Source: Candidatus Thorarchaeota archaeon (GTDB lineage Archaea > Asgardarchaeota > Thorarchaeia > Thorarchaeales > Thorarchaeaceae). From it: 64,000 nucleotides of DNA. Within the stretch, counting starts at the first letter, position 1; every line of letters begins with the position of its first letter. Made by a program: the position numbers and the translations under genes. Location: positions 64,001 to 128,000 of the forward strand of contig JAWOEX010000010.1 of NCBI GenBank assembly GCA_046482545.1, written 5' to 3'. Below, in pieces: positions 28,850 to 53,552 of this stretch. Below the pieces are notes generated by a model that did no database searches, was not told the origin of the DNA, and saw only the letters and a program-made list of their open reading frames with translations.

Positions 28850-29114
28850 GTGAACAGCCGCAGACTCTCCAGAGCCTGATGAGGCTCTTTGTTCGGATAG
28901 TGGGACTTCTGTCGAGAAGGGGAAGACTTCACTCAGGCTCTCGGCCTCGCGGTTCGCAGCACTGCACTAGCCCTCTAGCCTAGTTCTACGGAAACCCAAC
29001 TCGATAGCTAGCCCAATAAACACCTCTTGTGCTCGGTCATGAAGGGACTTTCAGGAAATCTTGCAGATATGCTTCACTTTGGAGTGCCGATTTGTTTAGG
29101 ATTTTGTAAGATTT
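28850..29114 (-). ncRNA. structured non-coding element E1 (omega-RNA / IS200-IS605 end-like), homolog of 53290-53552
   Basis: Shares AAATCTTACAAAATCCTA, CAGAAGTCCC, a covarying hairpin and a GCGGYTGTTCAC end with E2. Confidence 0.6.
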
Positions 29115-29141
29115 ACGTCTTCCTCGATTTCCGGATAAAGT

Positions 29142-30206
29142 CTATATCTCATAAATCCAGCCATATGGATCGTCAGTATGCCCACACTGAATACCTGTGA
29201 GATTGTCAAACAGCTTCCGTGAGAGATTGCCTACATATCCATCCGCTACCTGATAAGATGTGTTTTCAAAGTAGAGTTCACCCACTGGTGCAATCACAGC
29301 AGCTGTTCCAGTCCCGAAAATCTCAAGCACTTTGCCATTCGCGATACCTTCTATAACTTCGTAAATCGAAATCTTTCGTTCGGTTACATCATAGCCAAAG
29401 TCACGCGCCAATTGCAGTACTGAATCGCGGGTTATACCTGGGAGAATTGTGTCGTTGAGAGGGGGAGTAGCAAGCTCGTCCTCAAAGCGCACAAAAACGT
29501 TCATCGTTCCGCATTCTTCAATATACTTGCGCTCAATGGCATCGAGCCACAACACCTGTGAGTATCCCTTCTCAGTCGCTTTCTTCGTAGCCAAGAGGCT
29601 CGCAGCATAGTTGCTCATCGTTTTAGCTGCGCCCACTCCACCCTTGACCGCTCTCGTGTACTTGTCTGAGACATATATGCTGACGGGATTGAATCCCTCT
29701 TTGAAGTATGGTCCAACAGGACTCAAGATGACATAGAGCAGATACTGGTCGGATGGTTTCACACCAAGTTTGGGCTCAATAGCTATCATGGTAGGCCGAA
29801 TATACAGGGAGGTACCGTGCTCCTCAGGTATCCAATCTCGCTCAATATCGATGAGCTTGGTCAGAGCAATGAGTAGCTGCTCGCTATCGACTTCTGGCAT
29901 GACCATACGTTTGGCTGACCTGTTCAAACGTTTGAGATTCTGACGAGGACGGAACAGTAGGACTCGATTCCCCCGCCGGTATGCCTTCATTCCCTCGAAG
30001 ATACCCTGACCATAATGGAGAACCAATGCAGCAGGACTAAGCTCAAGATGAGAATAGGGCCTAATCTGAGGGCGGTGCCATTGGCCGCATCTATATTCCA
30101 TCATCAACATGTGATCGGAATATACGCTGCCAAAGGTCAAAGCCATCGGGTCTGTGGGCTTACGTTTTCGCTCATCTTCTGGAACCAGATTAAGATCGAT
30201 ATCCAA
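29142..30206 (-). CDS. ilvE: branched-chain amino acid aminotransferase
   Basis: LHYGQGIFEGMKAY, LYIRP, AK..NY, EECGTMN, LPGITR, GTAAVI. Confidence 0.95.
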   Translation of the reverse strand: MDIDLNLVPEDERKRKPTDPMALTFGSVYSDHMLMMEYRCGQWHRPQIRPYSHLELSPAALVLHYGQGIFEGMKAYRRGNRVLLFRPRQNLKRLNRSAKRMVMPEVDSEQLLIALTKLIDIERDWIPEEHGTSLYIRPTMIAIEPKLGVKPSDQYLLYVILSPVGPYFKEGFNPVSIYVSDKYTRAVKGGVGAAKTMSNYAASLLATKKATEKGYSQVLWLDAIERKYIEECGTMNVFVRFEDELATPPLNDTILPGITRDSVLQLARDFGYDVTERKISIYEVIEGIANGKVLEIFGTGTAAVIAPVGELYFENTSYQVADGYVGNLSRKLFDNLTGIQCGHTDDPYGWIYEI

Positions 30207-30312
30207 ATCAACCCAACTCGAGTAGCGAATTTCAGCGGTACCTCTTAGGTCTTTCCTAGAAACGACGCAACAAATATCTTAAGTCAGTGATACGCAAAAT
30301 AGACTGATTTTC

Positions 30313-30915
30313 ATGAGTCACAGTGAAGGAGCAGATGATGAGGATTTTTTCCTTGAGCCGAAGGAGGTGCTTTCCCAGTACTCGGTGGAATGGGTCTCCC
30401 TTCGCAAATCACACACTGAAGTCAAGGATAAGCTTGAAGAAGTAAAAGATAAACTGAATGAACTGGATCAACAGCTTGAGAGAGGCGAGATAAGCGAAAA
30501 GAAACACATGGAACAGTACAGAGACTATTGGCAGAAATCAACAAAAATGATTGAGATAAAGCGAGAAGTCGAATCAAGACTCTTCGAAATCCAGCGTGAA
30601 ATACGAAAGGCAAACCGCAAACTCAAGAAGCTTGAAGAAGAAAAGCGCAGGCGGAAGCGAATTGAACAAGAACGTTCTAACGCTATGATTGAATGGATGA
30701 GCTTGAAGCAGGGATTTGAACTTGTTGGAGAAAAAAGAGACAACATATCTGCGAAAATGGATCAATTGGAACTAAAGCGTCGGAACGGAGAAATTAGTGA
30801 CGCTGATTATCGAAGGCAGCATGTTGAAAATCTGAAAGAATTGGCCAAGTTGCGGACGCTCGAGGTAGATATTCAAAACAGACTCGGTGAATTGCTGGAA
30901 ATAATCAGGAAGTAG
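30313..30915 (+). CDS. CdvA-like coiled-coil protein
   Basis: All-helical; two GEIS..(H/Y) turn motifs as in the CdvA coiled-coil domain. Confidence 0.5.
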   Translation: MSHSEGADDEDFFLEPKEVLSQYSVEWVSLRKSHTEVKDKLEEVKDKLNELDQQLERGEISEKKHMEQYRDYWQKSTKMIEIKREVESRLFEIQREIRKANRKLKKLEEEKRRRKRIEQERSNAMIEWMSLKQGFELVGEKRDNISAKMDQLELKRRNGEISDADYRRQHVENLKELAKLRTLEVDIQNRLGELLEIIRK

Positions 30916-30940
30916 CGCTTTCTCGTAAAAACTAATTTTC

Positions 30941-30975
30941 AAAAAAGATGAGGGTGACCCCCAAGAGGGGGCCTT
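30941..30975 (-). terminator. hairpin plus U-tract after gdhA
   Basis: CCCC/GGGG stem followed by TTTTTT on the minus strand. Confidence 0.55.
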
Positions 30976-30989
30976 ACACCACACATATT

Positions 30990-32342
30990 CTACATCAAAT
31001 AACCCTGTGCAATCATTGCATCGGCGACTTTCATGAAGCCAGCAATATTCGCACCAAGCATGAGATTGCCTGGTTCGCCGAACATCTCTGATGTTTCGTA
31101 TGCAGTCTTGTGGATGTTGATCATGATGTCATGGAGTTTCCGGTCGACTTCCTCTCGGCTCCAGAAGTACCTCTGGCTGTTCTGAGACATTTCTAGGCCA
31201 GATACAGAGACACCACCGGCGTTTACAGCCTTACCAGGACCATATAGGACATTGGCATCTTGGATTATCTCGATTGCATCAGGTGTTAAGGGCATATTGG
31301 CACCTTCACCTACTGCCAAGACACCATTGTCAACCAGGGCTTGTGCTTCCTTCTTGTCCACTTCGTTCTGTGTCGCACATGGAAGAGCAACATCGCAGCC
31401 GAGGTTCCACGGGTTACTTTCAGGATCAAATTCAACATCATCGAATTCTTCAGCGTATTCTTTAATCCGTCCACGACGTACATTCTTGAGCTCAAGAATC
31501 CACTCCAGCTTCTCTCTATCGATGCCGTCAGGATCATACACGGCACCATCAGAGTCGCTCATGGAAATGACCTTGGCACCCAGCTGGATGCACTTCTCAG
31601 CGGCATACTGGGCCACATTCCCAGAACCGGAAACGCATACCTCCTTACCCTTTATGGTTTCATCACGGGTTTTCAGCATCTCTTCTGTGAAATAGACTGT
31701 TCCATATCCAGTCGCTTCTGGACGGATAAGAGACCCTCCGTAATTGGGACCTTTTCCTGTCAAGACACAGGTGCCATGTTTGTTAGTGACCTTGCGGTAG
31801 GCTCCATAGAGATAGCCAATTTCGCGCGCTCCCACACCAATATCTCCAGCGGGTACGTCAGTAAACTGGCCGATATGCTTGTAGAGCTCGAGCATGAAAC
31901 TGGTACAGAAATTCCGCACCTCTTCATTGGTCTTACCGTGTGGGTCGAAATCAGAACCTCCCTTGCCTCCACCCATTGGTAGGCCCGTCAAAGAGTTCTT
32001 GAAAATCTGTTCGAAACCGAGAAATTTGACTAGACCAAGCCTAACCGTTGGATGAAATCTGAGGCCACCCTTGTAAGGGCCGATTGCTGAATTGAATTGA
32101 ACCCTAAAGCCACGATTGACATTGATTTTGTTATCTCTATCTACCCAAGGAACTCGAAACATGACTACCCTTTCGGGCTCAACTATACGCTCGAGGATGG
32201 CATGCTCCTTGTACTTGGGAAATTTTTCGATAGCCGGCTCAAGGCTTTCCAGGACTTCATATACAGCCTGATGAAAAACATCCTGACGCGGATCTTTTTC
32301 ACGGCATTTTTCATAGACTTCTTCGATGTAGCTACTCACCAT
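30990..32342 (-). CDS. gdhA: NADP-specific glutamate dehydrogenase
   Basis: GPYKGGLRFHP, GGGKGGSDF, DVPAGDIG, RPEATGYG, GSGNVA. Confidence 0.96.
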   Translation of the reverse strand: MVSSYIEEVYEKCREKDPRQDVFHQAVYEVLESLEPAIEKFPKYKEHAILERIVEPERVVMFRVPWVDRDNKINVNRGFRVQFNSAIGPYKGGLRFHPTVRLGLVKFLGFEQIFKNSLTGLPMGGGKGGSDFDPHGKTNEEVRNFCTSFMLELYKHIGQFTDVPAGDIGVGAREIGYLYGAYRKVTNKHGTCVLTGKGPNYGGSLIRPEATGYGTVYFTEEMLKTRDETIKGKEVCVSGSGNVAQYAAEKCIQLGAKVISMSDSDGAVYDPDGIDREKLEWILELKNVRRGRIKEYAEEFDDVEFDPESNPWNLGCDVALPCATQNEVDKKEAQALVDNGVLAVGEGANMPLTPDAIEIIQDANVLYGPGKAVNAGGVSVSGLEMSQNSQRYFWSREEVDRKLHDIMINIHKTAYETSEMFGEPGNLMLGANIAGFMKVADAMIAQGYLM

Positions 32343-32470
32343 AATGCCTCACTCACCATAATGACTGTTGGCATGAACGCTCAGCTGTTTCCCTTACATA
32401 AATGTGGTGTTTTAACTAGAAATACCATACCGACTGAGAAAACATATTCTCCGGGTGTGGGAATCATCAG

Positions 32471-33238
32471 CTACTTGAGTGTGTCTTCTCGTTTTGTCTT
32501 CCCATACCCTTTTCGTGTTCTCTCAAACCTTTGCCTTCTGTCAATATCTGCGTTGAAAAACGAACTTCCGATACCAGAACTACACTCTTCACACATTAGC
32601 CCAGACGTTTTATCGAAATTAACGATTTTGCCACAAGAGATGCATATCCAAAGGCCGCTTCGATAAAGGCGGTCTCTCCGAAAGACGATCTTCGCTATCT
32701 CGTTCATAGATTTAGGACATTCCTTAGAAACCCCAGTTATCTTGCCATCGGACCAGCTGCATATGAGAGACACAAGGGTAGTCAGAAGCTCTATCAGTCT
32801 CGTGGTGTTTTCCTCTATTTCATTTGCTGTCTCGGTTCTACTATCAGCAGGGGTTTCCTCAATATCTGAAAGAAATTCTAGGAAAGCAAAGAACGCAGGC
32901 ATTGGAAAGCTCGATTCATTTTCAGAAACGGCCATTCTGGCAAGCACTGCCGATATCATGACTGTTTGGCTATAATCCTCGTTAAGAATGGACTCAACCT
33001 CTCTACCAACATCCTCTGGCTTTAGACGAAACTCAGTCAGTGGCAATCCTTCTTCCTTCAGGACAAACCGAACAGATTCCATGAAATCTCTTTTCTGGTA
33101 CATGGCCGCATTAACGCGGTTTGTGAGCTCGCTATATGCAATGCCTGTTTCGTCTGCAATTTTCTGCAATAAGTCACGAGCAGTATTAGGCAAGCTAAAC
33201 ACAAACCATGATTTCAGGTGTGTGATATCGAACAGCAA
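32471..33238 (-). CDS. hypothetical protein with C-terminal zinc finger
   Basis: CISCG...CEEC; true start probably the downstream TTG (MPNTAR). Confidence 0.65.
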   Translation of the reverse strand: MLFDITHLKSWFVFSLPNTARDLLQKIADETGIAYSELTNRVNAAMYQKRDFMESVRFVLKEEGLPLTEFRLKPEDVGREVESILNEDYSQTVMISAVLARMAVSENESSFPMPAFFAFLEFLSDIEETPADSRTETANEIEENTTRLIELLTTLVSLICSWSDGKITGVSKECPKSMNEIAKIVFRRDRLYRSGLWICISCGKIVNFDKTSGLMCEECSSGIGSSFFNADIDRRQRFERTRKGYGKTKREDTLK

Positions 33239-33291
33239 GCATTTTAGGTTGTCGCCTATGTCCTAAGAATAGCAAGAGGTAAAGAGAGGTA

Positions 33292-33840
33292 ATAACCCTG
33301 CTTTCCGATCGCGACCTAAGAGAGGCCATAGAATCCGGATCAGTTAGAATCGAGCCCTATGACGCTGATTCAGTTGGTCCATGTAGTATTGATTTGCGAC
33401 TTGATTCAGTGTTTCGAACGTATAACCCGGGAACACCGGTAGATATCAAGAAACCGGAGGAAGCTGCCGAGTACACCCAAATCGTTGAAACCCGAGGAGA
33501 ACCATTCATGATTCTCCCAGGACAGTTCGTTCTTGCCCAAACACTAGAAGAAATCGCCATATCAAGTGAATATGCGGGACTTCTGGAAGGACGTTCAAGT
33601 GTTGCCCGATTGGGGATAATTGTTCACGCTGCTGGATTGGTTAATCCTGGTACAGGAATGGAGGAGCCGACGAAATTGACCCTCGAAATCTACTGTTTCA
33701 ATCTTAGTCCTGTGTTGCTTTATCCTGAAATGAGAATCGTTCAGATGATGTTAGTTCCTCTCAGTTCTCCAGCAGCGGTGGGCTATGACGAGAGACCATC
33801 GAGTAGGTACATTGGGCAGGAGTCTCCCGATATGAACTGA
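33292..33840 (+). CDS. dcd: dCTP deaminase (non-canonical start)
   Basis: LSDRDL...IEP...SIDLRL, GRSSVARLGI; conserved N-terminus extends upstream of the first TTG. Confidence 0.88.
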   Translation: MTLLSDRDLREAIESGSVRIEPYDADSVGPCSIDLRLDSVFRTYNPGTPVDIKKPEEAAEYTQIVETRGEPFMILPGQFVLAQTLEEIAISSEYAGLLEGRSSVARLGIIVHAAGLVNPGTGMEEPTKLTLEIYCFNLSPVLLYPEMRIVQMMLVPLSSPAAVGYDERPSSRYIGQESPDMN

Positions 33841-33883
33841 CGGAAGGCCTATAAACAAGCTGGTATGAATTCGGCACGGCGTA

Positions 33884-34873
33884 TTGTTGATGAAGGCTTA
33901 CGATGTGGTTTTGGCAAGTGGCGCCGAGCATCTCAGGTCGAGATTTGAGGAGAAGGGTTACCGCGTATACTGTTGTGGAGAAAATTATGACGAGAGGCGA
34001 GTATTTCCAAATGGTGACTTGTACGTCAGGATAGCAGGAATAGAGGATCTTTCGGATAGAAGAGTCGTAGTTGTACAGACTTGTACCGGAACAATTCATG
34101 ATGGCGCGTTCTTTTCAACAGCGGACAGTGTTGTTGAGCTGCTGCTCATGCTTGATGCGCTTAAACGACCTGTGGAAGTTGAAAGAATACGAAGTAAAGA
34201 ATACAAAACCACACCAATCCCACCACCATCTCATGTAGAGGTAGTTCTTACGTTCCAACCGTTTGGACTGCAGGACAAAGCCTTCGAGACTGGCGAAGCG
34301 GAGTCTGCTAGATGGGCGACTGAAACAATAGCCCGGAACTGCAACAAAATTTGGGCAGTCAACCCCCATGCTACAACAAACCTTGAATGGGTTCAAAATT
34401 TTATGGAGCGTGACCTACTAGAGTATATTGATATTACACCCCGACTCATCGAATTTGGTGCAAAGAAGTTTGGATTCGAAGAATTTGAAGTCGTTACACC
34501 TGATTTGGGAGGACAACAGAGATTCAGTGTGAAGGGTTTCAGCAAAGAGAGGTCTGATTCATTCCATGTACAGCTTACTGGCGATTTGGACGTCAAGGGT
34601 AAGAATGTGATTGTACTCGACGATTTGACGAAAAGCGGTAGCACACTCTTGAATGCACAAGAACGACTACGAGAGCAAGGAGTAGCCGATGTTGGCCTTG
34701 CAGTTGTGCATGTACTTCCATTAGTAGGAAGAGGAGAAGAACTGCTCGAAAACTTGTTTGAAAAATGTGATGGATCTATTGTGACCACTAATACAGTCCG
34801 AACATCTCTCTTTTGGGAGAAGCACCCCGACCGCACGTATAACATTGTTGACAGCTTAGTGGGAATTCTCTGA
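33884..34873 (+). CDS. divergent ribose-phosphate pyrophosphokinase-like phosphoribosyltransferase
   Basis: FPNGDLYVRI, QDKAF..GE, PDLGG, VIVLDDLTKSGSTL PRPP loop. Confidence 0.8.
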   Translation: MLMKAYDVVLASGAEHLRSRFEEKGYRVYCCGENYDERRVFPNGDLYVRIAGIEDLSDRRVVVVQTCTGTIHDGAFFSTADSVVELLLMLDALKRPVEVERIRSKEYKTTPIPPPSHVEVVLTFQPFGLQDKAFETGEAESARWATETIARNCNKIWAVNPHATTNLEWVQNFMERDLLEYIDITPRLIEFGAKKFGFEEFEVVTPDLGGQQRFSVKGFSKERSDSFHVQLTGDLDVKGKNVIVLDDLTKSGSTLLNAQERLREQGVADVGLAVVHVLPLVGRGEELLENLFEKCDGSIVTTNTVRTSLFWEKHPDRTYNIVDSLVGIL

Positions 34874-36610
34874 TTGAGAAGAAAGAAGCCACAGCAAGAG
34901 TTAATTAATAGACTACTGAACCAGAGTCTGAGTGGAGCGTGTGCGGAGATGGTCAGAAGACTTAGACTCCCCTTTGCATTAAAGAAGAAAGATTTGGGGC
35001 TGGAAGCGACTTCAGAATCAGAATCCACCGTTGTGGCTCTGGCAAGAGCAGAACCCAACATAGAAGATGAAATGACTTATGCGCTGGCTAGAATTCCCAT
35101 TCCATTCTGGTGCGTACAGATATCTGAGCATGAATCCATCATTCTCTCTGCAATCATGGATGAGCCCCAAATCTTTGAATTCACCAATGATAAGAAGCTA
35201 GGCACAATCAAGCGTATGCTAAGAAGTGATATGGATAGCTGGCAAACTATTCCAGAAAGTGCTGAACACATCCTTCCGCTTATTGGGAGCATAGAAAAGG
35301 AAGTCAAGTACATGAAAGGGTTGGTCAATCCTTCCGTGTTTTTGCCAGTCGGTAACCATTTTTCAGAGCAAGAAGGGCAGAAAAGTACGCAAGTTCTGAA
35401 TGAAATAATTGATTCCCATAACGCGTTGGATACAAGTGAGCAATTCCAAGAAATTTTGGATACCAGAAGAATTAGGCTCGAAAGCATTCAAGAAATCCAA
35501 CAATTGTTGGAGAAAAAGCTAGAAAGGGAAACAGACAAACTTGATAATTTCATTAAAAGAGAGCGGGAACGGACCGAACAACGTACGAGAAACTTGCATG
35601 AAATTGCCGATATAGAAATCTCCATGCTGAAAGAAGAGGTAGAAGAGCAGCTAGAGAAGCTTGAGCAAGAGGAAACCATGGATTTAAGGGCATTGACTGC
35701 AGAGTTTGCACGAAGCACAAACCAGCTAGAGATTTTCTTCTCGAAGGATATTCTTGAAAAAATCAGGAAGCAGCGTAGTAAGATAGGTCAAAGCAAAGCG
35801 GATGTTGAATCAGCAACTAGTCACTTCGTCGAGCTTGCCGAGTGTTTGCACAACAATGTACACGAGTATAAGGAAATTATCTCTGAACTCAATTCCGAGA
35901 GCGAGCGAATACTTGCTCGCGGAAAGGAAATAAGGCAATCCTACGAAGACAAACGGAACAAGATTCATGATGAGATTAACGTACAAATACGAAATCATCA
36001 GCATCGCATTGTTGAGTTTGATCTTGAGCGTGATCAAGCTGAAAACAAATTACTAGAAGCAAGGGCCCGATTAGACGATGCTCGTGAAAGATTAATTGAA
36101 ACAATCCAAGAACGGGTCCATACGCTTAAAGAGGAGCTGAGAAACCTACAAGAATTCGCTTTCAAAAGTGTGAATATCCCGGGTCTAGCTTCGCTGACGA
36201 AGCTCAACGTCGAGATCTTCTTGCATAACCAAAACGAGCGGCTGGAAATAATGACCCCTTGCATCATACCCGAGGAGGGAGTAACATTGGGTTTGGAATG
36301 TGAGGAAACCAATCATGAACTTAGTTCTTTCCTTAGAGAGATGGTTGAAAATAGAATTGATTCCAGAATGTCATTTGCTAATGAATTAGAACGAGTGTGT
36401 ATTTCAGAGAATTTGTTTCTCGCTCCACAGATGAGCGAATCCCTTCAGGAAGGTGTTGATGAACTGCATCATAGCGGACTTTTAGAAAGCCATAGAAAGA
36501 GAGCCCTCACAAAAAGATTCAGCTTAAGAGCTCGAAGGTGCCCATATTGTGGGGCTGAAATTGCTGAATCTATCCGCTTCTGTGGAGAATGTGGAAAACC
36601 GCTTCAATGA
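34874..36610 (+). CDS. long coiled-coil protein with C-terminal zinc ribbon
   Basis: Extended heptads; CPYCG...FCGECG. Confidence 0.7.
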   Translation: MRRKKPQQELINRLLNQSLSGACAEMVRRLRLPFALKKKDLGLEATSESESTVVALARAEPNIEDEMTYALARIPIPFWCVQISEHESIILSAIMDEPQIFEFTNDKKLGTIKRMLRSDMDSWQTIPESAEHILPLIGSIEKEVKYMKGLVNPSVFLPVGNHFSEQEGQKSTQVLNEIIDSHNALDTSEQFQEILDTRRIRLESIQEIQQLLEKKLERETDKLDNFIKRERERTEQRTRNLHEIADIEISMLKEEVEEQLEKLEQEETMDLRALTAEFARSTNQLEIFFSKDILEKIRKQRSKIGQSKADVESATSHFVELAECLHNNVHEYKEIISELNSESERILARGKEIRQSYEDKRNKIHDEINVQIRNHQHRIVEFDLERDQAENKLLEARARLDDARERLIETIQERVHTLKEELRNLQEFAFKSVNIPGLASLTKLNVEIFLHNQNERLEIMTPCIIPEEGVTLGLECEETNHELSSFLREMVENRIDSRMSFANELERVCISENLFLAPQMSESLQEGVDELHHSGLLESHRKRALTKRFSLRARRCPYCGAEIAESIRFCGECGKPLQ

Positions 36611-36612
36611 AT

Positions 36613-36840
36613 TTACTCCAAGTAATCATCCGCATCCCCGGTTGCTATCCAGCTCTTGGTACTGTATCGTTCAGCCAAATCCTTCTCTTCTAAGGAGTTT
36701 AAAGCGCCGATTATCTCATTTCGAGTATAGCGGGTTTCTTGGCTGCTTAATGCTTTCTGGATTGCTGATGCACGATGATTGTCATCATATATGAAGCGGA
36801 GAATTTTCCGCTCAAGCTCAGAAATGTCTTCGTCACTCAT
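36613..36840 (-). CDS. small winged-helix protein
   Basis: LERKILRFI...EIIGALNSLEEKDL...W. Confidence 0.7.
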   Translation of the reverse strand: MSDEDISELERKILRFIYDDNHRASAIQKALSSQETRYTRNEIIGALNSLEEKDLAERYSTKSWIATGDADDYLE

Positions 36841-36953
36841 GGTAATCTATTCAACTCCCGCAAAACTGAATCTTAAAAACGCTGTCATTGGGGGTAAGAC
36901 ACTACGAAACCCTTTTTACAACTCTGAATTGCACCCCACTAGTCAGTGAATGG

Positions 36954-37706
36954 ATGATGAACAGATCTGAGTACCATATCAGGATAGCCAAAGGGGAGAT
37001 GCCACAACGAGTCTTGCTGCCTGGAGACCCCGGTAGAGCTAAGGCCATTGCACATACCTACTTTGATAATCCTTCAGAAGTAGCAAGGAACCGGGAGTAC
37101 TGGAGTTTTAAGGGCGAATATGATGGCATAGAAGTTGGTGTCTGTTCAACAGGAATCGGCTGTCCCTCTGCGGCTATCGCAATCGAGGAGCTTGTCAAGG
37201 TAGGATGTAAGTCGTTCATACGAGTCGGTTCGGCAGGTGCCATAGATAGAACGCTCTCGGCAGGAGACCTCGTAATCTTTTCTGGATCCGTTCGGGATGA
37301 CGGCACATCAGTTCAGTATGTACCCATCGAGTACCCCGCCGTTGCTGACCCTGTAATGGTCCAATCACTGGCAAGAGCAGCAGAAAGAAGGAATGCACCA
37401 TACAGAATCGGAATCGGACATAGCAAAGATGCCTTCTACAGTGAACATCCAGATATGGTATCTAATCCAACTGCTCTCAAACAAAAGTGGAAATCTATGG
37501 AACGTGTGGGTGTACTGGCTACTGAGATGGAATCGGCAGTTCTTTTTGTACTGGGACATCTTAGAAAAGTCAGGGTTGGAACTGTATGTGTGATAATTGG
37601 TGAACCCATTCAGAACAAAGCAGAAATTACAGAAAAACCAAAGCTAGAACACTTAGTTCCTGTGGCGCTGGATGCCATAACCGCGACTGATATCGACTTG
37701 ACATGA
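36954..37706 (+). CDS. udp: uridine/nucleoside phosphorylase
   Basis: YHI, LPGDPGRA, STGIGCPS, RVGSAG, EMES. Confidence 0.9.
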   Translation: MMNRSEYHIRIAKGEMPQRVLLPGDPGRAKAIAHTYFDNPSEVARNREYWSFKGEYDGIEVGVCSTGIGCPSAAIAIEELVKVGCKSFIRVGSAGAIDRTLSAGDLVIFSGSVRDDGTSVQYVPIEYPAVADPVMVQSLARAAERRNAPYRIGIGHSKDAFYSEHPDMVSNPTALKQKWKSMERVGVLATEMESAVLFVLGHLRKVRVGTVCVIIGEPIQNKAEITEKPKLEHLVPVALDAITATDIDLT

Positions 37707-37761
37707 TTTGAAACAATCGCATCTAATACCTAGTAGGGATAATGCTCCTATTTTCAAAACG

Positions 37762-38547: not shown

Positions 38548-38722
38548 AGAGTATCAACACCTCTAAGCCTGCTGTTCGCTTAATGGGGCATCAACTCACT
38601 TAAAGTTATTCCGAGAGAAACGCTCTTTTCCTGATGACACTAGCAAGAATTTGACCTTAACAAAGATAAAACATTCACCATCCTTATTTGTAGCATGTAC
38701 CTACAAGTTCTTGTGAATTGGA

Positions 38723-39808: not shown

Positions 39809-39967
39809 TTCGTCCCGAAAAAAGACATGTTGTTCGAAAAAAGCGAATGTTTCTACAAAACAAGGCGAGGGGGCTTCTACTGCGTGTCTGGCGAAGTCTT
39901 ATAAGGCATCAATGCGTTGCTTCTATGCATTCCTATACGAGGAGTGAGGAAAAACGGAGGAAAAACA

Positions 39968-40141
39968 ATGGCAGACTATGTAGTCAAGAAAGCAATTCAG
40001 GACTTCGCACGAAGTAACGACCTTATGGTAGCATCAGATTTCTACGATGAGCTTGATAAGCACGTAGAGAAGCTACTACAGGCCGCGGCAAAGAGAACCA
40101 CGGCTAATAGACGAAAGACACTAAGCCCTCACGATTTGTAG
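39968..40141 (+). CDS. minimal 'face-to-face' type histone (DUF1931-like)
   Basis: VVKKAI...VASDFYDELD...AAKRTTANRRKTLSPHDL; GGAGG upstream. Confidence 0.85.
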   Translation: MADYVVKKAIQDFARSNDLMVASDFYDELDKHVEKLLQAAAKRTTANRRKTLSPHDL

Positions 40142-44865: not shown

Positions 44866-44948
44866 TGGATTTCCCTTCCCTTATTTGAGAAAAGAATGAA
44901 AAATAGCCAAATAAGGGTGTGCTTCCCCGTAGTATATGAGTTGACACT

Positions 44949-46097
44949 ATGACCTCACGAATGACTCATCTTCACTGTCCAAACTGTGGAAAGAAATACA
45001 AGGCTGAACCCGGAATTTCATACTGCTCATGCGGCTCTCCCATTTTTGCACAATATGATATCAAAGCTGTTTCGGAGGATATTGCAAACAATGATTTCCC
45101 CGGAAGGGAGAATTCGATGTGGAGATATGCCAGTCTGTTACCTGTTGACTCGCGAAGAGCTGTCACATTGGGTGAAGGTTGGACTCCTTTACTTTCATCA
45201 AAACGTATCCATGAATACATGGGCCTAGAATCGGTCTATATCAAGCAAGAATCGCAAAACCCTACGTTGAGCTTCAAAGATCGTGGACTCAGTGCCGCTA
45301 TCTCCAAACACACTCAACTTCGGAGCAACCATTTTGTAATTCCATCAGCAGGTAATGCAGCCATATCCATGTCAGCTTATGCTGCAGCTGCTGGGGCTCT
45401 AGCGACAGTTTACATGCCTGAAAATACACATGAGTCATTTTTCCAAGCTTGTTCCCAATATGGAACAGAAGTCATTGCTGTGAAAGGAACTATCGCAGAT
45501 TGCGGTACAGCGGTACAGAAAAATGAGGGGGTTTGGACCGATATCTCAACAACAAAAGAGCCATTTCGGGTGGAAGGTAAGAAAACACTAGGTTTCGAAA
45601 TATGTGAACAGATGAACTGGTCACTTCCTGAAGTGATTATCTGTCCTACCGGCGGAGGAACCGCACTTCTCGGTATATGGAAAGGAATACAGGAGCTTGA
45701 GAATGTGGGACTCATCGATGGGACCCGGCCCCGTATGTTTGCAGCGCAGAGTGATGGTTGTGCGCCCGTCGTCCGAGCGTTCAAAGCCGGATCCAAGACA
45801 ATTGAGCCTTGGGAAGATAGTGAGACAAAGGCCTTAGGTCTGCGTGTTCCAAAACCATTCGCAGATGAATTGATTCTAGATATACTGCGAGAGTCAGAAG
45901 GAGGAGCAGTAGCAGTAGATGAAAAATCGATTGGAAAAACTAGACGATTAGTAGCAGAAGACGAGGGTATTGATATGTGCCCCGAAGCTGCGGTGGCTAT
46001 CGCTGGAGCAAAGAAACTTGTTGAACAGAGAAACATAGACAAGAATGAAGATGTCGTGGTTCTGAACACCGGTTCAGGGGTCAGATATCCAAGCTAG
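44949..46097 (+). CDS. thrC: threonine synthase
   Basis: Zn ribbon, TLGEGWTPL, NPTLSFKDRG, SAGNA, EGKKT, PTGGG. Confidence 0.88.
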   Translation: MTSRMTHLHCPNCGKKYKAEPGISYCSCGSPIFAQYDIKAVSEDIANNDFPGRENSMWRYASLLPVDSRRAVTLGEGWTPLLSSKRIHEYMGLESVYIKQESQNPTLSFKDRGLSAAISKHTQLRSNHFVIPSAGNAAISMSAYAAAAGALATVYMPENTHESFFQACSQYGTEVIAVKGTIADCGTAVQKNEGVWTDISTTKEPFRVEGKKTLGFEICEQMNWSLPEVIICPTGGGTALLGIWKGIQELENVGLIDGTRPRMFAAQSDGCAPVVRAFKAGSKTIEPWEDSETKALGLRVPKPFADELILDILRESEGGAVAVDEKSIGKTRRLVAEDEGIDMCPEAAVAIAGAKKLVEQRNIDKNEDVVVLNTGSGVRYPS

Positions 46098-46735
46098 GTT
46101 TTATTTGGCAGGTGGTCAAGAATAAATCTCAAATCATTCTCTTTTATTACAACGTCAGCTGCTTCTGCTACTTCGTCATCTTCCGGACAAAACGCTATTG
46201 AAAGTCCCACATGAGAAAAAGCGCTGACATCATTTTTCCCATCACCTACGTATGCGGTTTGTTCTAGTGGAACAGCAAAGCGATTAGCGATTTGTTGGAT
46301 TAGACTACCCTTCTCCCCCCATTCGACACGCACATCCACTTCACCTGTAATCTTACCATCCTCGTGTAGTAAGCGATTTGTCATAACACAGTCTATGCCT
46401 AAACGATTTCCGACATGTTCTGCTACTATATCTAACCCTCCAGATATGATGGCCAACTCAGCCCCCGCATCCTTGAGAGCTTCAACTGTCTCCATCGCCC
46501 CCGGAGTCAAGTCGGATGTCTTCGCTAATTCTGCTGCATCTTCAATTTTTTTGCCTTTCCATAATGATGCATCTAGAGTTGCCCATTGTTTATAGTTAAT
46601 ATCACCAGCGAAGTACCGATTGAAATACGCCTTACCTTCAGCTTGGGTTCCAAAATGCTCGTGCAGTCTCCACCAGATAGAGGAATGGGTTGTAAGAGTG
46701 CCATCAACATCAAACACTACAAGGCGTATTGTCAT
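46094..46735 (-). CDS. HAD-IB phosphatase (phosphoserine phosphatase-like)
   Basis: FDVDGT, ISGG, K, GDGKND. Confidence 0.85.
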   Translation of the reverse strand: MTIRLVVFDVDGTLTTHSSIWWRLHEHFGTQAEGKAYFNRYFAGDINYKQWATLDASLWKGKKIEDAAELAKTSDLTPGAMETVEALKDAGAELAIISGGLDIVAEHVGNRLGIDCVMTNRLLHEDGKITGEVDVRVEWGEKGSLIQQIANRFAVPLEQTAYVGDGKNDVSAFSHVGLSIAFCPEDDEVAEAADVVIKENDLRFILDHLPNKT

Positions 46736-46766
46736 TTATTATCCCGTACCAAATCACAAATCAGTA

Positions 46767-47417
46767 TTATGAACTTCGCTCTCGTTCAGTGCGTGCTTCT
46801 TCTTCCAACTCTAGTAGAAGCTCCTCAACCCTATTAGAAGCAGCCTCATTTCGTTGCTTCACAGCCGCCTGTTGCTTCTCGACCGATGGAACAGCAGTTT
46901 TTTTCTCCATAAGAACTTCGGCTTCAATATTGCTCAGCCGTTTCTCAATCTGTTCTTCTTCCGCAATAGTTGTTCCTGACCCAACTAAATCCTCTGATAG
47001 GAGCTCACTCGATATGGACACTCGCTCCAGAGAATCTGAGAGTTTATCCATTTCTTCCTGAATTTCAGCAGGTGAAAGCATATCCCGAGCTTGATTCAAT
47101 GCCCGGTTTGCAGTGCGAAGGGTTTTGAGAATCCTGGTCTGATCGCTAGATTCTTCTATGCTCATCAATGCAGATTGAAGAGTCTGGAATTGCTGCTGAT
47201 ACCTACCAAGTCTCTTCTCAAGGTCAACCGCTACTCCAAGATGAGTTCTGGCTACGCTTTTGTTTCCTTGTTTTACAGCCTTCTTCGCTGCACGATGCTC
47301 CTCGGAAATACGGGTTTCGAGCTTCCTTATGCGGAGAGTGATAGCGTTCATAGTCCCTTTAATCTCTAGAATTCCTCTCTCGGCATCAACTTCCTTCTTG
47401 CCGCTTAGGAAACCCAT
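46767..47417 (-). CDS. ESCRT-III (Snf7 family) protein
   Basis: Helical hairpin with AKKAVKQGNKSVAR, basic N-half and acidic C-half, C-terminal ELLLEL helix. Confidence 0.8.
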   Translation of the reverse strand: MGFLSGKKEVDAERGILEIKGTMNAITLRIRKLETRISEEHRAAKKAVKQGNKSVARTHLGVAVDLEKRLGRYQQQFQTLQSALMSIEESSDQTRILKTLRTANRALNQARDMLSPAEIQEEMDKLSDSLERVSISSELLSEDLVGSGTTIAEEEQIEKRLSNIEAEVLMEKKTAVPSVEKQQAAVKQRNEAASNRVEELLLELEEEARTERERSS

Positions 47418-47506
47418 AATGTGCACCAGTCCGGTTCTACAACCTGTCTCCTCAGCGAGAGCATTTAAACGATTGGACTATCCAGACATATAACGGAAGT
47501 CTCAGC

Positions 47507-48325
47507 ATGAGAATTATTGACACTCTCCGAAAGGCAGTAGAATCCGCCCGTGAATTGATCCTTGACAACATTGAGAGAGCACGTGTAAAAACAGGGAAAA
47601 GGAATCCTTTTGGTGACCAGACCCTCGCTCTTGACAAGGAAACTGAAGATATAGTCATCAATGTGCTCCAAGAATCTGACACAACTTTTTCGATTATGAC
47701 TGAAGAACAGGGTATTGTCGAGCAAGACAGCCGGCCTGACTATATTGCTATCGTCGACCCCATTGATGGTTCTGCGAACCTAGAAAGAGGCATACCCATT
47801 TGTTCAATTGGTATTTCGGTTTTGCCCTATGGCGAAAGACTCACGACAGATGACCTCGAAGTGAGCATCATCCAGTCATACTTTACCAATGAAACCTATG
47901 TGGCAATGAAGGGTAAAGGTGTGACCCTCAACGGCAAGCAGATAAGACCAAGGGAGAAAAGCCCGATTGCGGAGACGATAATCTCATACGATACAAAAAA
48001 GCAGTGGGATGAAGAATTCTCTGCGGCTTCTTTGCGGGTACTGAAAAATGTCTTTGATATGCGCCGCAGTGCAAGCAATCTGCTCGACCTGTGCTGGACA
48101 GCCGCAGGAGGCCTTGATGCGATGCTCGATCTTCGCGGTGTCTTGCCAATTGTGCATGTCTCTGGCACCCACATGGTTACTGAGGCTGGAGGATTCGTTG
48201 TTGATTTCCAAGGATCCAGATTGAAGCTCCCAATAGATTACGACGAGAGAATGAGTTTCGTCGCGGCGTCGAATGAAATATTGGCTAGAAATCTTTTAGC
48301 TCTTTGGCAGGGCACTAAGAGCTGA
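47507..48325 (+). CDS. inositol monophosphatase / FBPase family protein
   Basis: TEE, VDPIDGSAN, EAGG. Confidence 0.88.
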   Translation: MRIIDTLRKAVESARELILDNIERARVKTGKRNPFGDQTLALDKETEDIVINVLQESDTTFSIMTEEQGIVEQDSRPDYIAIVDPIDGSANLERGIPICSIGISVLPYGERLTTDDLEVSIIQSYFTNETYVAMKGKGVTLNGKQIRPREKSPIAETIISYDTKKQWDEEFSAASLRVLKNVFDMRRSASNLLDLCWTAAGGLDAMLDLRGVLPIVHVSGTHMVTEAGGFVVDFQGSRLKLPIDYDERMSFVAASNEILARNLLALWQGTKS

Positions 48326-48401
48326 AGCGCAAATTTTAGTCGTATCTAAATTCTTTTTTGTGAGGAACGAGTGTAGGGAAACAGCACAGAGGAGTATTGA
48401 A

Positions 48402-49217
48402 ATGTCTAAATCAAAATCAATGGTGCCTCCCGAAGTGGAGAAGGCGATGAAAAATGTCAAGCATAAGATTGTCATACTCAGTGGGAAAGGTGGAGTAGGC
48501 AAGACCACAGTAGCGACTAACCTAGCCATGTCCTTTGCAAAAAAGGGAAAGAAAGCTGGGATTCTGGACGTAGATATATACGGTCCTAATGTACCCAAGC
48601 TTCTCGGCTTAGAGGGGCAACATCCAACAGCTGAGGAGAAGATGATCCACCCAATTGAAGGCCCATTAGATACGAAAGTTATGAGCATGGCCTTCCTGTT
48701 ACGGAACAAGGATGATGCTGTAGCATGGAGAGGTCCACTAGTAGCGAAAACTATCAGCCAGTTCCTGAGCAATGTTACCTGGGGTGAGCTTGATGTCCTA
48801 GTTGTTGACCTTCCGCCAGGTACAGGTGATGAAATCCTAAGCATCCTTCAATCCATTCCAGACATAGACGGTGTTGTCATTGTGAGCACTCCTCAAGAAG
48901 TTGCAGTAATGGATGCAAGGCGTGCTGTTCGACTTGTTAAGAAAATGGGGGTACCAGTGCTTGGAATCGTTGAGAACATGAGTGAATTTGTCTGCCCCAA
49001 TTGCAGTGAATCATTCAAGCTATATGGTGAAGGAGCAGCTAAGGAAGCAACAGAAGATTTCCAAATCGATTTGCTTGGTTCTCTTCCTTTTGACCCTAGA
49101 GTGATTCAGCGCAGTGACCAGGGAAAACCTTTCGTTATTTCTGAGCCTGATACTGAAGTTTCGAAAGCGTTTGCGAAGGTTGTGGAAAAGCTCACTAAGA
49201 AAATCAATATTGAATAG
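48402..49217 (+). CDS. Mrp/NBP35 Fe-S cluster carrier ATPase
   Basis: SGKGGVGKT, DVDIYGP, WRGP, DLPPGTGD, ENMS..CPNC. Confidence 0.93.
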   Translation: MSKSKSMVPPEVEKAMKNVKHKIVILSGKGGVGKTTVATNLAMSFAKKGKKAGILDVDIYGPNVPKLLGLEGQHPTAEEKMIHPIEGPLDTKVMSMAFLLRNKDDAVAWRGPLVAKTISQFLSNVTWGELDVLVVDLPPGTGDEILSILQSIPDIDGVVIVSTPQEVAVMDARRAVRLVKKMGVPVLGIVENMSEFVCPNCSESFKLYGEGAAKEATEDFQIDLLGSLPFDPRVIQRSDQGKPFVISEPDTEVSKAFAKVVEKLTKKINIE

Positions 49218-49356
49218 TATCAAAAAAAGGGAAAACGGGAATCTGGGATAACTCTTACAAAGACTGAAAACGAGTGAGCATGGAAATACAAGAATAAGTC
49301 AGTATGTCTGGCATTTTTCAATTCCGCTGGTGGAATTGATTTGAAAATGTAATTTT

Positions 49357-49656
49357 CTATTCCTGAGGAACCTCTTCTTTATCAATTCGAACTAGATATG
49401 CTTGGAGGAGCAGAAAGCTAGAAACCGCCATACCAACTTCTATCCAGAAAGTCAGGTGCGCCCCGAACCACTTGATAGGATTAATGGCGAGGTCGCCAAA
49501 GGCAGTCCCAAACACAACAGATTGAATCCACATTGGAACAATGAAAGCTAGTGGCAGAGATACCAAAAGTACCAAGATTATTGAAGCTAGAATCTCAGCT
49601 GTGTACATAAGGACCCGCTTGAGCGATTCGTTAATTTTTGAAAGAGTCTCTGACAT
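49357..49656 (-). CDS. small two-TM membrane protein
   Basis: Two hydrophobic segments. Confidence 0.65.
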   Translation of the reverse strand: MSETLSKINESLKRVLMYTAEILASIILVLLVSLPLAFIVPMWIQSVVFGTAFGDLAINPIKWFGAHLTFWIEVGMAVSSFLLLQAYLVRIDKEEVPQE

Positions 49657-49728
49657 TGTTTTCCCTTTCCTAGGAATTCAGTTTTCACCGTCCTTTTAAC
49701 GCTTGCTAGAACATGAACAAATCTCGAA

Positions 49729-49820
49729 TAAAAGAAGACGGGGTGACCCCCGAGAGATGATCAGGGATTGAGTGTGGATGTCCGAGAGGGAGAGATGTGG
49801 GTCACCCGCTAGTGACAGCT
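49729..49820 (-). ncRNA. candidate CU-rich-loop small RNA 1
   Basis: 9-bp stem GGGTGACCC/GGGTCACCC enclosing a pyrimidine-rich loop, followed by a U-rich tract. Confidence 0.45.
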
Positions 49821-49904
49821 ATGTAATATTATATAATAAGTGTATATAGTATAGATGGATTGACGAATCACAATCGAATTCCCTGTAAAGAAGGAAGATG
49901 GAGC

Positions 49905-49987
49905 AAAAAGAAAGGGCAGGGGGCCCATTCAGAACACAGAAGGAGAAGAGAGAAGATCGTTCGTGAAAGAGTAGCCCCCAGTCACCT
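49905..49987 (-). ncRNA. candidate CU-rich-loop small RNA 2
   Basis: GGGGGC/GCCCCC stem, CU-rich loop, CTTTCTTTTT tail. Confidence 0.45.
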
Positions 49988-50003
49988 TCAGTAATATTAC
50001 TGA
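49988..50003. promoter_or_regulatory. perfect 16-bp palindrome TCAGTAATATTACTGA (candidate operator)
   Basis: Core GTAATATTA recurs at 49823-49831; GTAATAACA at 50031. Confidence 0.5.
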
Positions 50004-50261
50004 GAGAATGCATATAATCAATTTCATGATGTAATAACAAAGAAGGGCCGGAAACTCCTACATCCTGTTTGCACGGGTAACGTGCACACACTCCTCTCCT
50101 CCTCAAGCGCGGGCGTATAAGCCTGTTACAACCAGGGAATCTTTTTCTCGGGCGCTCCTAGCACCTTCACATTTTTCTTGTGGATTGCAAGGTGGTCAGG
50201 AAAATGGGGGCACCCTTGATCAGGTGGGTTCCATAAACTGAAAGAGATTTAGATAGAATGC

Positions 50262-50933
50262 TCATTCCAATGGAAAAGCATACTCTCTTTTCAAATCCTT
50301 GAGTATTGAGCGGACAGTTTGTTCCCGCAGATTCAATTTGCTAGAAATACTTGTAACCGTTTCATCTTGGCTATCAAGGATGCAATACAAAACCCTACGA
50401 ACATTGGGTCTATCAATCTTCTTTACAATATGCGATGCTTTGTGTACAACCCTATTTCGGATATACAATAGAATCGCCCGTTCTCGTTCCATTCTATCAA
50501 GTAATGCATCTATTCGATCCAGTAAATCCGCAAATTCACCTATCTGCTCGCGTTCGTTTTGTTCAGAAATTAACTCGAGCTCTTCAAGAAGCCCAGAAGA
50601 GGATTTGCGAAAATTGGCGGCATCAGGCTCAGTCCTGAAAGATATCATTCGTAGATCAAAAAGATGGGGAGCTAGTTCGATAGTAATCAACAGATTCTTA
50701 CTAAGCGAGTATACTCTCCTCTTGGGTCCTCTTGTGCTATCCTCTAGCTCCGACTCTATTAGCCCCCCTTCTTCCATGATTCTCAGGTGGGACGAAACCA
50801 ATTGTTGACTTATTCCTAGCTCTTTTGCTATACGCAAGGAATAGCCAGGTTCGTGGCTTAAGCGCTCCAGAATTCGTCTTCTGGTGGGATTCTCAAGAAG
50901 GGTTATGAAATCATCAATACTTTCAGTTGTCAT
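50262..50933 (-). CDS. ArsR-type HTH regulator, heat-shock regulator (Phr/HSR1, COG1777)-like
   Basis: LENPTRRRILERL..EP.Y..IAKELGISQQLVSSHL..GP.RR.Y; directly downstream of hsp20. Confidence 0.75.
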   Translation of the reverse strand: MTTESIDDFITLLENPTRRRILERLSHEPGYSLRIAKELGISQQLVSSHLRIMEEGGLIESELEDSTRGPKRRVYSLSKNLLITIELAPHLFDLRMISFRTEPDAANFRKSSSGLLEELELISEQNEREQIGEFADLLDRIDALLDRMERERAILLYIRNRVVHKASHIVKKIDRPNVRRVLYCILDSQDETVTSISSKLNLREQTVRSILKDLKREYAFPLE

Positions 50934-50991
50934 TATAGGGTTGCTCCGATTAGGAAAGAAAAAAGAAGGAAGGAGCGTAGATAGAACTCGA

Positions 50992-51513
50992 CTATTCAAG
51001 TTCTACCTTTGTCATTCGCTCCTCAGGTTTTGGTTCTTTCTTCGTGACTTTGAGCTCCAGCACGCCATCTTTCATTGTGCCTTTGACTTTTGAGGGGTTA
51101 ACTTCCTCAGGAAATCGCACTGTTCTGCTAATTTGTGAATATGTTCGCTCCCTATGTATGTAGTCTCCTTCTGTCTCTTCCTCCCGATTTTCTATCTCCG
51201 CCTGTACTCGCAGGGTATCCTTGTTTACCTCAACATCCACATTGTCCTTGTTGAGACCAGGGAGCTCCGCTGTGACAAGATACGTCTCGCCCTGATCTAC
51301 GAGATCACAGAGAGGATACCTAGTGGGAAGACGCCCACCAGTTCTTGCCGCTGTTCTCATCGGCATAAAGGGTGCCATAAGATTGTCAAAAGATCTCCTG
51401 AAATCATCAAATATCGCATCAAATCCGCGTGCTAGTGATCTGTTACGCTCGGGAACACGACTGTCTGATCTCGGTTCAATATTCTTGTGTTCATCGATAT
51501 TTTCTTTAGACAT
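50992..51513 (-). CDS. hsp20: small heat-shock protein Hsp20
   Basis: AELPGL.K..V, RER, FPEEV, MKDGVLEL. Confidence 0.93.
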   Translation of the reverse strand: MSKENIDEHKNIEPRSDSRVPERNRSLARGFDAIFDDFRRSFDNLMAPFMPMRTAARTGGRLPTRYPLCDLVDQGETYLVTAELPGLNKDNVDVEVNKDTLRVQAEIENREEETEGDYIHRERTYSQISRTVRFPEEVNPSKVKGTMKDGVLELKVTKKEPKPEERMTKVELE

Positions 51514-51524
51514 TTGTGCACCTC

Positions 51525-51551
51525 CATTATACATATTTGGTTTGTATAATG
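51525..51551. promoter_or_regulatory. 9-9-9 inverted repeat CATTATACA-N9-TGTATAATG adjoining the hsp20 SD
   Basis: Perfect arms at 51525-51533 and 51543-51551. Confidence 0.55.
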
Positions 51552-51804
51552 TCGCAGTATCTATTTGAATTTTTCGGTAGATTGGTCATTTGTTATGTGA
51601 ACACACAGGTATAAACCCCCGAACTCGTTAAACATACAGAGGATACTTCACTGCGCTTTACAGGCATAGGAGAATATCAGCTGGTTCAATGATCTCCTTT
51701 TCACAACAATCATAATCTACGTTCTGTCAGTACAACCAAACACCTGTGGTGAAGACCAATAGTAGTTGGGATAGCCCAAGGGTGAAAATTCCTCAATGAA
51801 GCAA

Positions 51805-52281
51805 TCAAGAGAAAGTCCTTCCAAGCCGTACGTCGCAGCCATTTGCTAACCGGATCCGTATGGGAACAGATCCATGAGAGAAAACCTCGACAAAAAATGG
51901 ATTTGAGGATTCGGCCACTTTCAGCCAAAAATTGTTTTCATTCCGGTAGTAGCTGTACTTGAGATTGTTCTCTTTCACCTCTATAATGGAGCCCTCATAC
52001 AGCTTATTCAAATCCTCAACAATAAGCCTAGAATTATTCGATTTACTATGACAGATAGGATGCGAGAGATAGAATTTCTCAACTCTTCCAGCTTCGATGC
52101 AAAGAACTGCAACATGGGGGCGCCTGCAAGAATCCCATTCATTTGGAATAGGAGGGCTGCGACAAAGATAAGCACCTCTTGCTGACGCTAATACTGAATA
52201 TGCACCCTCATCGATCATCATTGACTCATTATCCTCTATTTCTCTTCCTTGTACCGTGGACGAGGGACTGCCCAATAGCAT
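51805..52281 (-). CDS. hypothetical protein
   Basis: 158-aa ORF with an upstream TTTATATA box; no motif recognised. Confidence 0.45.
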   Translation of the reverse strand: MLLGSPSSTVQGREIEDNESMMIDEGAYSVLASARGAYLCRSPPIPNEWDSCRRPHVAVLCIEAGRVEKFYLSHPICHSKSNNSRLIVEDLNKLYEGSIIEVKENNLKYSYYRNENNFWLKVAESSNPFFVEVFSHGSVPIRIRLANGCDVRLGRTFS

Positions 52282-52493
52282 ATCCCAATTACTTAGATAG
52301 AATATAATAAACTGTTACAGTCTCATAATGAGAAAACCATAGTTCTAATACCATGTTCTATGCCTCGTAGAGAGCCTTTAGGAGGCATTGGGCAGAAACA
52401 AATACTGAACAAATGTTTTTCAGACAGAAAGTATAGATGCAGTTGGAAAGGCCGACACGGATTTAATTGTTTATCTTAACAATCGGACATCAG

Positions 52494-53183
52494 TCAAGAA
52501 GAGACTAATCCATTCAACTGCTTTCGCAATGCGGGAAGGATTTCTTTGAGCTCATCAAATACTTCCTCTGCACCTGCTTCCAAAAGATCTTCCTTTTTGA
52601 CTTCGCCAGTTGCAACTCCCCAGAAGGGAATATTAGCTCGTTTAGCGGCCTCAGCATCTATTGTAGCATCACCAACATAAACAGCCTCCTGTGGTTGTAC
52701 ATCCAATCTCTCCAAAACGCGCAATAACCCATCAGGAAAAGGCTTCGGATTTGGTGATTCATTACGCGTCTGAATAACGTCAAAGAGGTGTTCTACATCG
52801 ATTTGATCCAGTATTCTGTCAACGGCTTCTCTGCCATTATTGGTCAGGATAGCAGTCTTCAATCCCATATCAGATACGGATTGTACAACAGACCTAGCGC
52901 CATCCAGCAACCGAACCTCACTAGCTGCATCAGACTCGTGCTTATTGAGTACAACATCAACCTCTTTCTGAAGCTGCTGCCATTCTTCCTCAGACATTCC
53001 ATCATTTCTAAAATACTCTCTTGCCTTCATAGTAGAACTGGATATACCGTCGGTTGAATCAAGCAGATGCGGAGGGAGACCCTTTTCTAGATAGAATTTC
53101 TTGGTGTCATTGCGCATCTTGTTTAAGGGTAGCATCAGAGCTATTATTGTGCCATCAAGATCAAAAATTACAGCTTCAAGCAT
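52494..53183 (-). CDS. HAD-IA hydrolase (phosphoglycolate phosphatase-like)
   Basis: FDLDGT, LTN, KPFP, VGD...D. Confidence 0.9.
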   Translation of the reverse strand: MLEAVIFDLDGTIIALMLPLNKMRNDTKKFYLEKGLPPHLLDSTDGISSSTMKAREYFRNDGMSEEEWQQLQKEVDVVLNKHESDAASEVRLLDGARSVVQSVSDMGLKTAILTNNGREAVDRILDQIDVEHLFDVIQTRNESPNPKPFPDGLLRVLERLDVQPQEAVYVGDATIDAEAAKRANIPFWGVATGEVKKEDLLEAGAEEVFDELKEILPALRKQLNGLVSS

Positions 53184-53289
53184 TCAGGGCTTCACCCGTG
53201 TGGCCTACAGGAAAAACGTGAGGGTCGTTATGGCTACTAAAACCTATCGGATTCACAATATTCATGAATGATGAATCCAAGAATAACAG

Positions 53290-53552
53290 AAATCTTACAA
53301 AATCCTAGAAGAGTCGAGTACAAAAGTGCAAGATAACTGTAAAATTTTCTGCAGTGCTATTGTAGCCTTGGAGGGGAGTTTATGAGGCCCAGTACGAGAG
53401 ACCGGTCTAGTGGGACTAGGGCGGTGGGCCACTCCCCGCGGGAGAAGCGCTCAGCCCCGAAGGCTGTGAGAGGGACTCGTTCCACTAAGCAGAAGTCCCC
53501 ACTCTCCACTAAAGGAACTCCATCAAGTTCCGGAGTGTCCGCGGTTGTTCAC
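53290..53552 (+). ncRNA. structured non-coding element E2 (omega-RNA / IS200-IS605 end-like), homolog of 28850-29114
   Basis: Homology to E1; AAGCAGAAGTCCCC...hairpin...GCGGTTGTTCAC. Confidence 0.6.

Follow-up and report, generated by a model that had tools for sequence, protein, structure and literature searches.

The window analysed here is a stretch of 64,000 nucleotides from a Candidatus Thorarchaeota genome (G000, 98.9% complete; C20:64001-128000) and contains two elements, E1 and E2, both intergenic, which an earlier note had taken for protein-free guide-RNA loci resembling the omega-RNAs of TnpB nucleases. E1, on the minus strand (28836..29121), is the 5' half of a non-autonomous element, without the 3' two-thirds of its omega-RNA, the right end and the guide. 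On that strand it retains a left target copy that has decayed from TCNNGA (TCGAGG, 29122..29127), the left-end inverted repeat (AAATCTTACA ... TGCAAGATTT, 29055..29114), a TATA-like box 33 nt ahead of omega-RNA helix 1 (29014..29020) and an omega-RNA remnant that stems from the tnpB 3' end (28836..28986). E1 shows about 70% identity to its nearest sibling. E2, on the plus strand (53283..53703, 421 bp), runs from left end to right end and carries an internal deletion of ~140 nt at GACAA (53584-53588), a 5-mer that occurs at both deletion ends in the consensus. Its parts on this strand are a left target copy one change away from TCAAGA (CCAAGA, 53277..53282), a left-end inverted repeat (53290..53347), a TATA-like box likewise 33 nt ahead of helix 1 (53379..53385), an omega-RNA remnant with a mutated right-end hairpin (53413..53703) and the right target copy TCAAGA (53704..53709), about where a guide would begin, to extend ~16 nt into the flank. 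The ~40 bp that follow (window 53710-53750) have neither a counterpart in congeners nor a second copy in the genome.

The sequence blocks and the identical 18-mer that the earlier note described as shared by E1 and E2 are indeed present, as is the covarying 3' hairpin, and the outer ACTCTCC/GGAGAGT stem is 97.7% paired over 49 relatives. Neither element matches an Rfam family at gathering level, and two intact sibling copies gave nothing in Rfam at E<=5. Other parts of the description did not survive comparison with the family. The reported abrupt end of similarity after GTTCAC applies to E1, which stops ~14 bp beyond it because it is truncated, and fails for E2, which continues for ~150 bp to its right end at 53703, and for the family, whose consensus extends ~290 bp past this motif. 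Hence GTTCAC is not an end, and the guide, placed directly 3' of it by the note, would in intact copies begin ~290 nt further on. The near-equal lengths of the two loci arise because each measurement began at the shared left end and stopped at one internal motif common to both, and the suggested CCGCG:YGCGG pairing is found at 56%, about background; in the family, CCGCGGC and GTTCACT pair with downstream strands (98-99% paired) that are lost in E1 and E2.

E1 forms 28 of the 128 consensus pairs, 86 having been lost through truncation, and E2 forms 56, with another 56 lost from the central and core helices. Empty and filled sites were compared, as the note had proposed: in two congener genomes used for orthologous-site comparison (G001 and G002) the element is absent from both sites, the E2 flanks there differing by some tens of bases. 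A segment of ~12.6 kb (window 16150-28760) is inverted between this genome and the two congeners, with E1 at one of the breakpoints, and no reciprocal half of E1 was found at the other. We consider it very likely that E1 and E2 are relics of a mini-element family derived from an aCas1-TnpB transposon, described below. Both are most likely dead, E1 lacking a right end and guide and E2 its core helices, and it is very improbable that either is functional.

Far from there being only two loci, a search of the genome at E<1e-5 yielded 105 matches on 26 contigs, 35 kb in total, and the 18-mer alone occurs 6 times. The 33 full-length copies, each of ~570 bp and non-coding, consist when intact of a left end, a TATA box, a structured omega-RNA of ~430 nt and a right end, with a TCTTACAG core shared by both ends. 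Exact 6-bp target duplications flank 20 of 31 end pairs. The target motif is TCNNGA, and where both sides read TCNNGA the two central bases agree in 19 of 21 cases (shuffled mean 4.0, maximum 11). Removing a sibling copy on contig C16 together with one 6-mer leaves a sequence that aligns without gaps to an uninterrupted gene in G001 and G002. Guide-directed target choice gained no clear support in this genome, since the variable bases of the left end do not clearly match the right flank of the same copy (p 0.05 and 0.19). The copies are old and mosaic, with a median pairwise identity of 73% and a maximum of 95%. Being non-coding and multi-copy, with the ends of a parent, target duplications and empty alleles, the family is very probably a mini-element comparable to miniature inverted-repeat (MITE) or palindrome-associated (PATE) transposable elements and derived from a Thorarchaeota aCas1-TnpB transposon. 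The mini-element itself contains its own target hexamer, and at C20:181311-182450 and C41:25041-25605 copies lie back to back or nested at TCNNGA.

The origin from a TnpB omega-RNA, proposed in the note, is borne out. The 3' 430 bp of the family correspond to the end of tnpB genes in this genome, and the omega-RNA overlaps the tnpB 3' end and reaches the right end. Direct pair counts and hidden Markov models took the place of a covariance model. Over the 49 aligned sequences, the fold comprises 128 pairs, 91.8% paired and 81 with double changes, compared with 40-45% and 31-42 in slid controls, although this margin is optimistic because the structure was predicted from the alignment on which it was scored. 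In 25 of 26 copies the TATA-like box keeps the same distance, 33 nt, ahead of the first helix, the remaining copy being a mis-call, whereas three control intervals vary in the mini-elements. This invariance suggests that the intact copies are transcribed, promoter-bearing guide-RNA cassettes, so that the stand-alone guide cassettes envisaged in the note are possible for the family.

A parent unit of 8.3 kb (C28:141697-133381) has the same ends as the mini-elements and an exact duplication; both ~8.2-kb elements are flanked by exact duplications. The 8.3-kb unit contains only tnpB, a 224-aa open reading frame (ORF) and, at C28:136446-141473, a giant divergent ORF without a Pfam match; no PolB family was matched in it. 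The giant protein (1400-1900 aa; hereafter aCas1) combines Cas1, PD-(D/E)xK and RecA-like domains. In the structure model of one paralog (predicted local distance difference test score, pLDDT, 85), residues 8-245 resemble the Cas1 catalytic domain (8flj (VIA): Z 12.8, root-mean-square deviation 3.4, 179 aligned; casposase 6opm: Z 10.4), residues 597-890 align with RecA/KaiC folds, and the PD-(D/E)xK motif lies between the two. For a helical domain, Z-scores below ~13 need care, and part of the weight of the assignment is carried by the Cas1-type residues E79, H174 and D181/D184, kept in all four genome copies. The domain was missed by Pfam, PDB sequence search and Foldseek and was found only by a wide structural search; the Pfam Cas1 profile had no match anywhere in the genome. 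The aCas1 ORF stands head-to-head with tnpB in 44 of the 64 loci with enough flank, nearly all from Thorarchaeota, and among 31 genomes searched a single family accounts for every occurrence of both aCas1 and the RNA element. We consider it likely from these sequence features that aCas1 is the transposase of the element.

In the TnpBs, whose presence in the genome the note had wished to see checked, Gly replaces the usual RuvC-II Glu and there is an alternative Glu, E404; D243, E404 and D438 are invariant in seven TnpBs, the pattern described for RIIr-5 (alternative Glu, both Asp kept). The predicted TnpB structure was poor (pLDDT 58) and the alternative Glu could not be placed in three dimensions. 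With its RuvC triad retained in rearranged form, TnpB is a predicted nuclease, at odds with the TldR-like effector suggested in the note. Two further loci were seen among those extracted from this genome and its relatives (L-numbers): L019 (3832-5736, 11668-12168) holds an aCas1 relative paired with a TnpB-like ORF of high divergence, a MerR-resolvase gene coming next, and L012 (8477-10326; C34:112476-114325) a tnpB without aCas1 after a gene pair that by eye looks like an AbiE-type antitoxin and nucleotidyltransferase.

The note had offered two readings of E1 and E2. One, that they have been domesticated as guide-RNA genes acting in trans for a TnpB/TldR-like regulator of the host, could draw on the TATA box kept at family spacing in both, on the covariation of the retained hairpins and on the age of the copies, but the family is mobile, both sites are empty in two congeners, E1 is without a right end or guide and E2 without central helices, TnpB keeps D243, the alternative E404 and D438, and a search for a common target of the mini-element guides returned only chance-level matches; we regard this reading as highly improbable. 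The other, in which E1 and E2 would be IS200/IS605 PATEs moved by a Y1 TnpA without duplication, the matching hexamers being co-inherited cleavage motifs, fits the hairpins at both ends, the overlap of the omega-RNA with the tnpB 3' end and the single Y1 match in the genome. This sole Y1 gene, however, covers 98 of 121 model positions before its similarity to the model gives way to unrelated sequence, and it has no linkage to the element; the parents carry aCas1 instead. Among copies of the same left-end type, moreover, the two central bases change on both sides together, and the empty site holds a single hexamer. Flanked as they are by a 6-bp target duplication, confirmed against an empty site, the copies are not IS200/IS605 elements, and we give this reading hardly any credence. 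E1 and E2 are neither IS200/IS605 elements nor domesticated genes.

The mini-elements of this family could instead have been moved by an unrelated DDE transposase, the giant Cas1-fold protein being defence cargo. Short duplications at a palindromic target are typical of DDE enzymes, five DDE_Tnp_1 (IS4-like) matches in the genome could supply the activity, and the aCas1 paralogs are only 25-32% identical to each other, as cargo often is. Against this, the 8.3-kb unit with its exact duplication contains no DDE gene, nor does any other parent examined, the association of aCas1 with tnpB persists across Thorarchaeota, and in the genomes searched aCas1 occurs in no other family than the RNA element does, so that we find it unlikely. 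As for other enzymes, no serine recombinase (PF00239) was matched in the genome or inside the parents, and the tyrosine recombinases searched for were not found.

Upstream of tnpB in the parents lies a further feature, a crRNA (CRISPR RNA)-like mini-cassette (C28:135200-135330 in L009 and C20:230340-230460 in L010, as well as L011, L014 and L033-L112), in which a short version of the scaffold end precedes 12-15 nt that copy the element's own TATA box. In 54 of the 56 callable loci, out of 74 examined, this mini-guide matches its own promoter 92-99 bp upstream, with T[A/C]AT in front of the target. The 48 distinct mini-guides match 12.7 of 13 positions in their own promoter and 8.4 in those of other loci. 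Furthermore, the mini-repeat is complementary to a loop at the omega-RNA 3' end (the anti-repeat), with a duplex energy of -24.3 kcal/mol as against -21.2 for cross-locus pairs, -11.3 for shuffled sequences and roughly -10 for the cis arm; compensatory changes occur at some loci, and in this genome the loop is kept in only 23 of 62 right ends. As related loci are not independent, significance is overstated by the permutation result. Autorepression of tnpB by the mini-guide is a probable function, and its simplest reading, by analogy, would be repression of the CreR/tracr-L kind through a crRNA-like RNA combined with a split guide of the TranC kind. A mini-guide cassette was also seen on C38 near 60510 (-), a contig on which no tnpB was detected.

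All the functions we propose for the element, TnpB, aCas1 and the mini-guide are read from sequence. By attacking twice in a staggered manner, the Cas1 domain would integrate the ends of the element in trans and leave the 6-bp duplication, as casposases do. In intact mini-elements, transcription of the omega-RNA would run on into the right flank, and the RNA would load TnpB supplied by the parents, which in turn probably limit TnpB through the separate mini-RNA pairing with the omega-RNA 3' anti-repeat; the 12-15-nt guide to the TATA box would be long enough for binding and too short for cutting. Several observations weigh against this scheme. The left end is hypervariable over its first 7-8 nt and the terminal repeats are imperfect, one C20 parent is a chimera, and much of the omega-RNA region is also tnpB coding sequence in the parents. 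The T[A/C]AT motif may partly reflect promoter constraint (the transcription factor B recognition element, BRE), and 18 of the 74 loci gave no callable mini-cassette. Finally, at none of the 19 clean target sites is position -4 of the TAM (transposon-associated motif) a T, making classical homing by the cassettes doubtful, and the bases upstream of tRNA-matching guides vary as well.

tRNA and rRNA genes recur around these elements. Matches to tRNAs were found for 18 of 69 right-end guides and for 9 of 136 control 13-mers, one and the same guide is found again in different genomes, and some 20 elements adjoin a tRNA or 16S gene; relatives often lie beside tRNA or rRNA genes with matching guides. 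One could speculate by analogy that the parent is an RNA-guided, Cas1-catalysed transposon with a naturally split guide, whose omega-RNA serves as trans-activating crRNA (tracrRNA) for crRNA-like mini-RNAs that both silence tnpB and steer aCas1 beside tRNA and rRNA genes, as the homing spacers of CRISPR-associated transposons do; we hold this to be rather unlikely. The matching pieces may simply be leftover target DNA, and no clear homology beyond 6 bp was seen at the TCNNGA insertions of this genome (p 0.05-0.19). In L016, a tRNA-Ala gene of another genome is occupied by an element that shares 88% identity with the C20 parent over 7.25 kb and carries a spare, inverted tRNA-Ala. The empty tRNA-Ala gene of the present genome (C6:81529-81604) reads TCAAGA just after the anticodon loop, and the TCNNGA preference may derive from such a target. 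In L033 (4055-4355, 11816-11860) the right flank of the element matches tRNA-Asp in its intron-less form and the left side holds an intron-containing copy, with ATGCTA on both sides; the tRNA may be restored by this element together with an intron through which self-targeting is blocked. Short repeats resembling the right end, in irregular runs and each followed by ~16-20 nt similar to 16S rRNA or tRNA, were noticed in L107 (11763-12020), L059 (10237-10500), L073 (9785-9950) and L011 (12300-12500), and may be a proto-array or the scars of repeated insertion.

The closest known system, as judged from its description, is aCas1-TnpB (Cas1H-Asgard-1/2; PMC10691335, with reference to Makarova et al. 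2020), which shares a diverged Cas1 beside tnpB, an Asgard host, flanking repeats and a GTTCACTCA motif downstream of tnpB. A transposase role for aCas1 is proposed there. In the text available to us neither a target duplication nor a target motif is given, nor are mini-elements or a self-targeting guide upstream. In the present elements GTTCACTC reads as an anti-repeat within the scaffold, and the guide follows ~25 nt later. PATE-like omega-RNA-only elements (bioRxiv 10.1101/2023.03.14.532601) are likewise protein-free, with both ends and an omega-RNA, and depend on transposase and TnpB in trans, but the present family has a 6-bp duplication, a Cas1-fold partner, a ~430-nt RNA, a TATA box of its own and insertion sites without a clear TAM. 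With casposons (PMC9939771) the element shares a Cas1-fold integrase and target duplications, and many relatives lie beside tRNA genes, whereas here there is no PolB, the duplication measures 6 bp instead of about 15, the terminal inverted repeats are imperfect, the Cas1 match covers the catalytic helical domain only, fused to nuclease and RecA-like domains, and the element carries TnpB and spawns mini-elements. The short guide upstream of the effector, matching the effector's own promoter behind a fixed motif, recalls CreR/crlRNA and tracr-L (bioRxiv 10.1101/2024.10.29.618823), and the use of the omega-RNA as tracrRNA for a separate crRNA-like RNA recalls the TranC split-guide TnpBs (PMC13565253); both differ from this mobile TnpB element, in which the neighbouring Cas1 is apparently a transposase and not an adaptation module. 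Compared with TranC and type V CRISPR, no regular CRISPR array was seen, the irregular repeats having been judged by eye and no array search made. TldR (bioRxiv 10.1101/2023.11.30.569447) shares RNA-guided promoter binding by a TnpB-family protein, but here the RuvC triad is retained, the promoter is that of the element itself and the system is mobile. In the accessible literature, most subscription papers falling outside the search, we found no report of a mini-guide upstream of tnpB, a 6-bp duplication or promoter-bearing mini-elements in such a system, no paper joining Cas1, TnpB and Thorarchaeota, and no primary paper on repression by a TnpB of its own promoter.

As for E1 and E2, they are debris, and the interest lies in the parent system. 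Through its ends, 6-bp duplication, target motif and empty sites, the family offers sequence evidence, not found in that literature, for the Asgard aCas1 as a transposase. From the self-targeting mini-guide, in turn, the end of the scaffold and a candidate TAM can be read for a TnpB clade that is uncharacterised. The splitting into tracrRNA and crRNA and the CRISPR-style autorepression suggested here within a Cas1-bearing transposon bear on the origin of type V CRISPR, and the system is a possible half-way stage between transposons and CRISPR.

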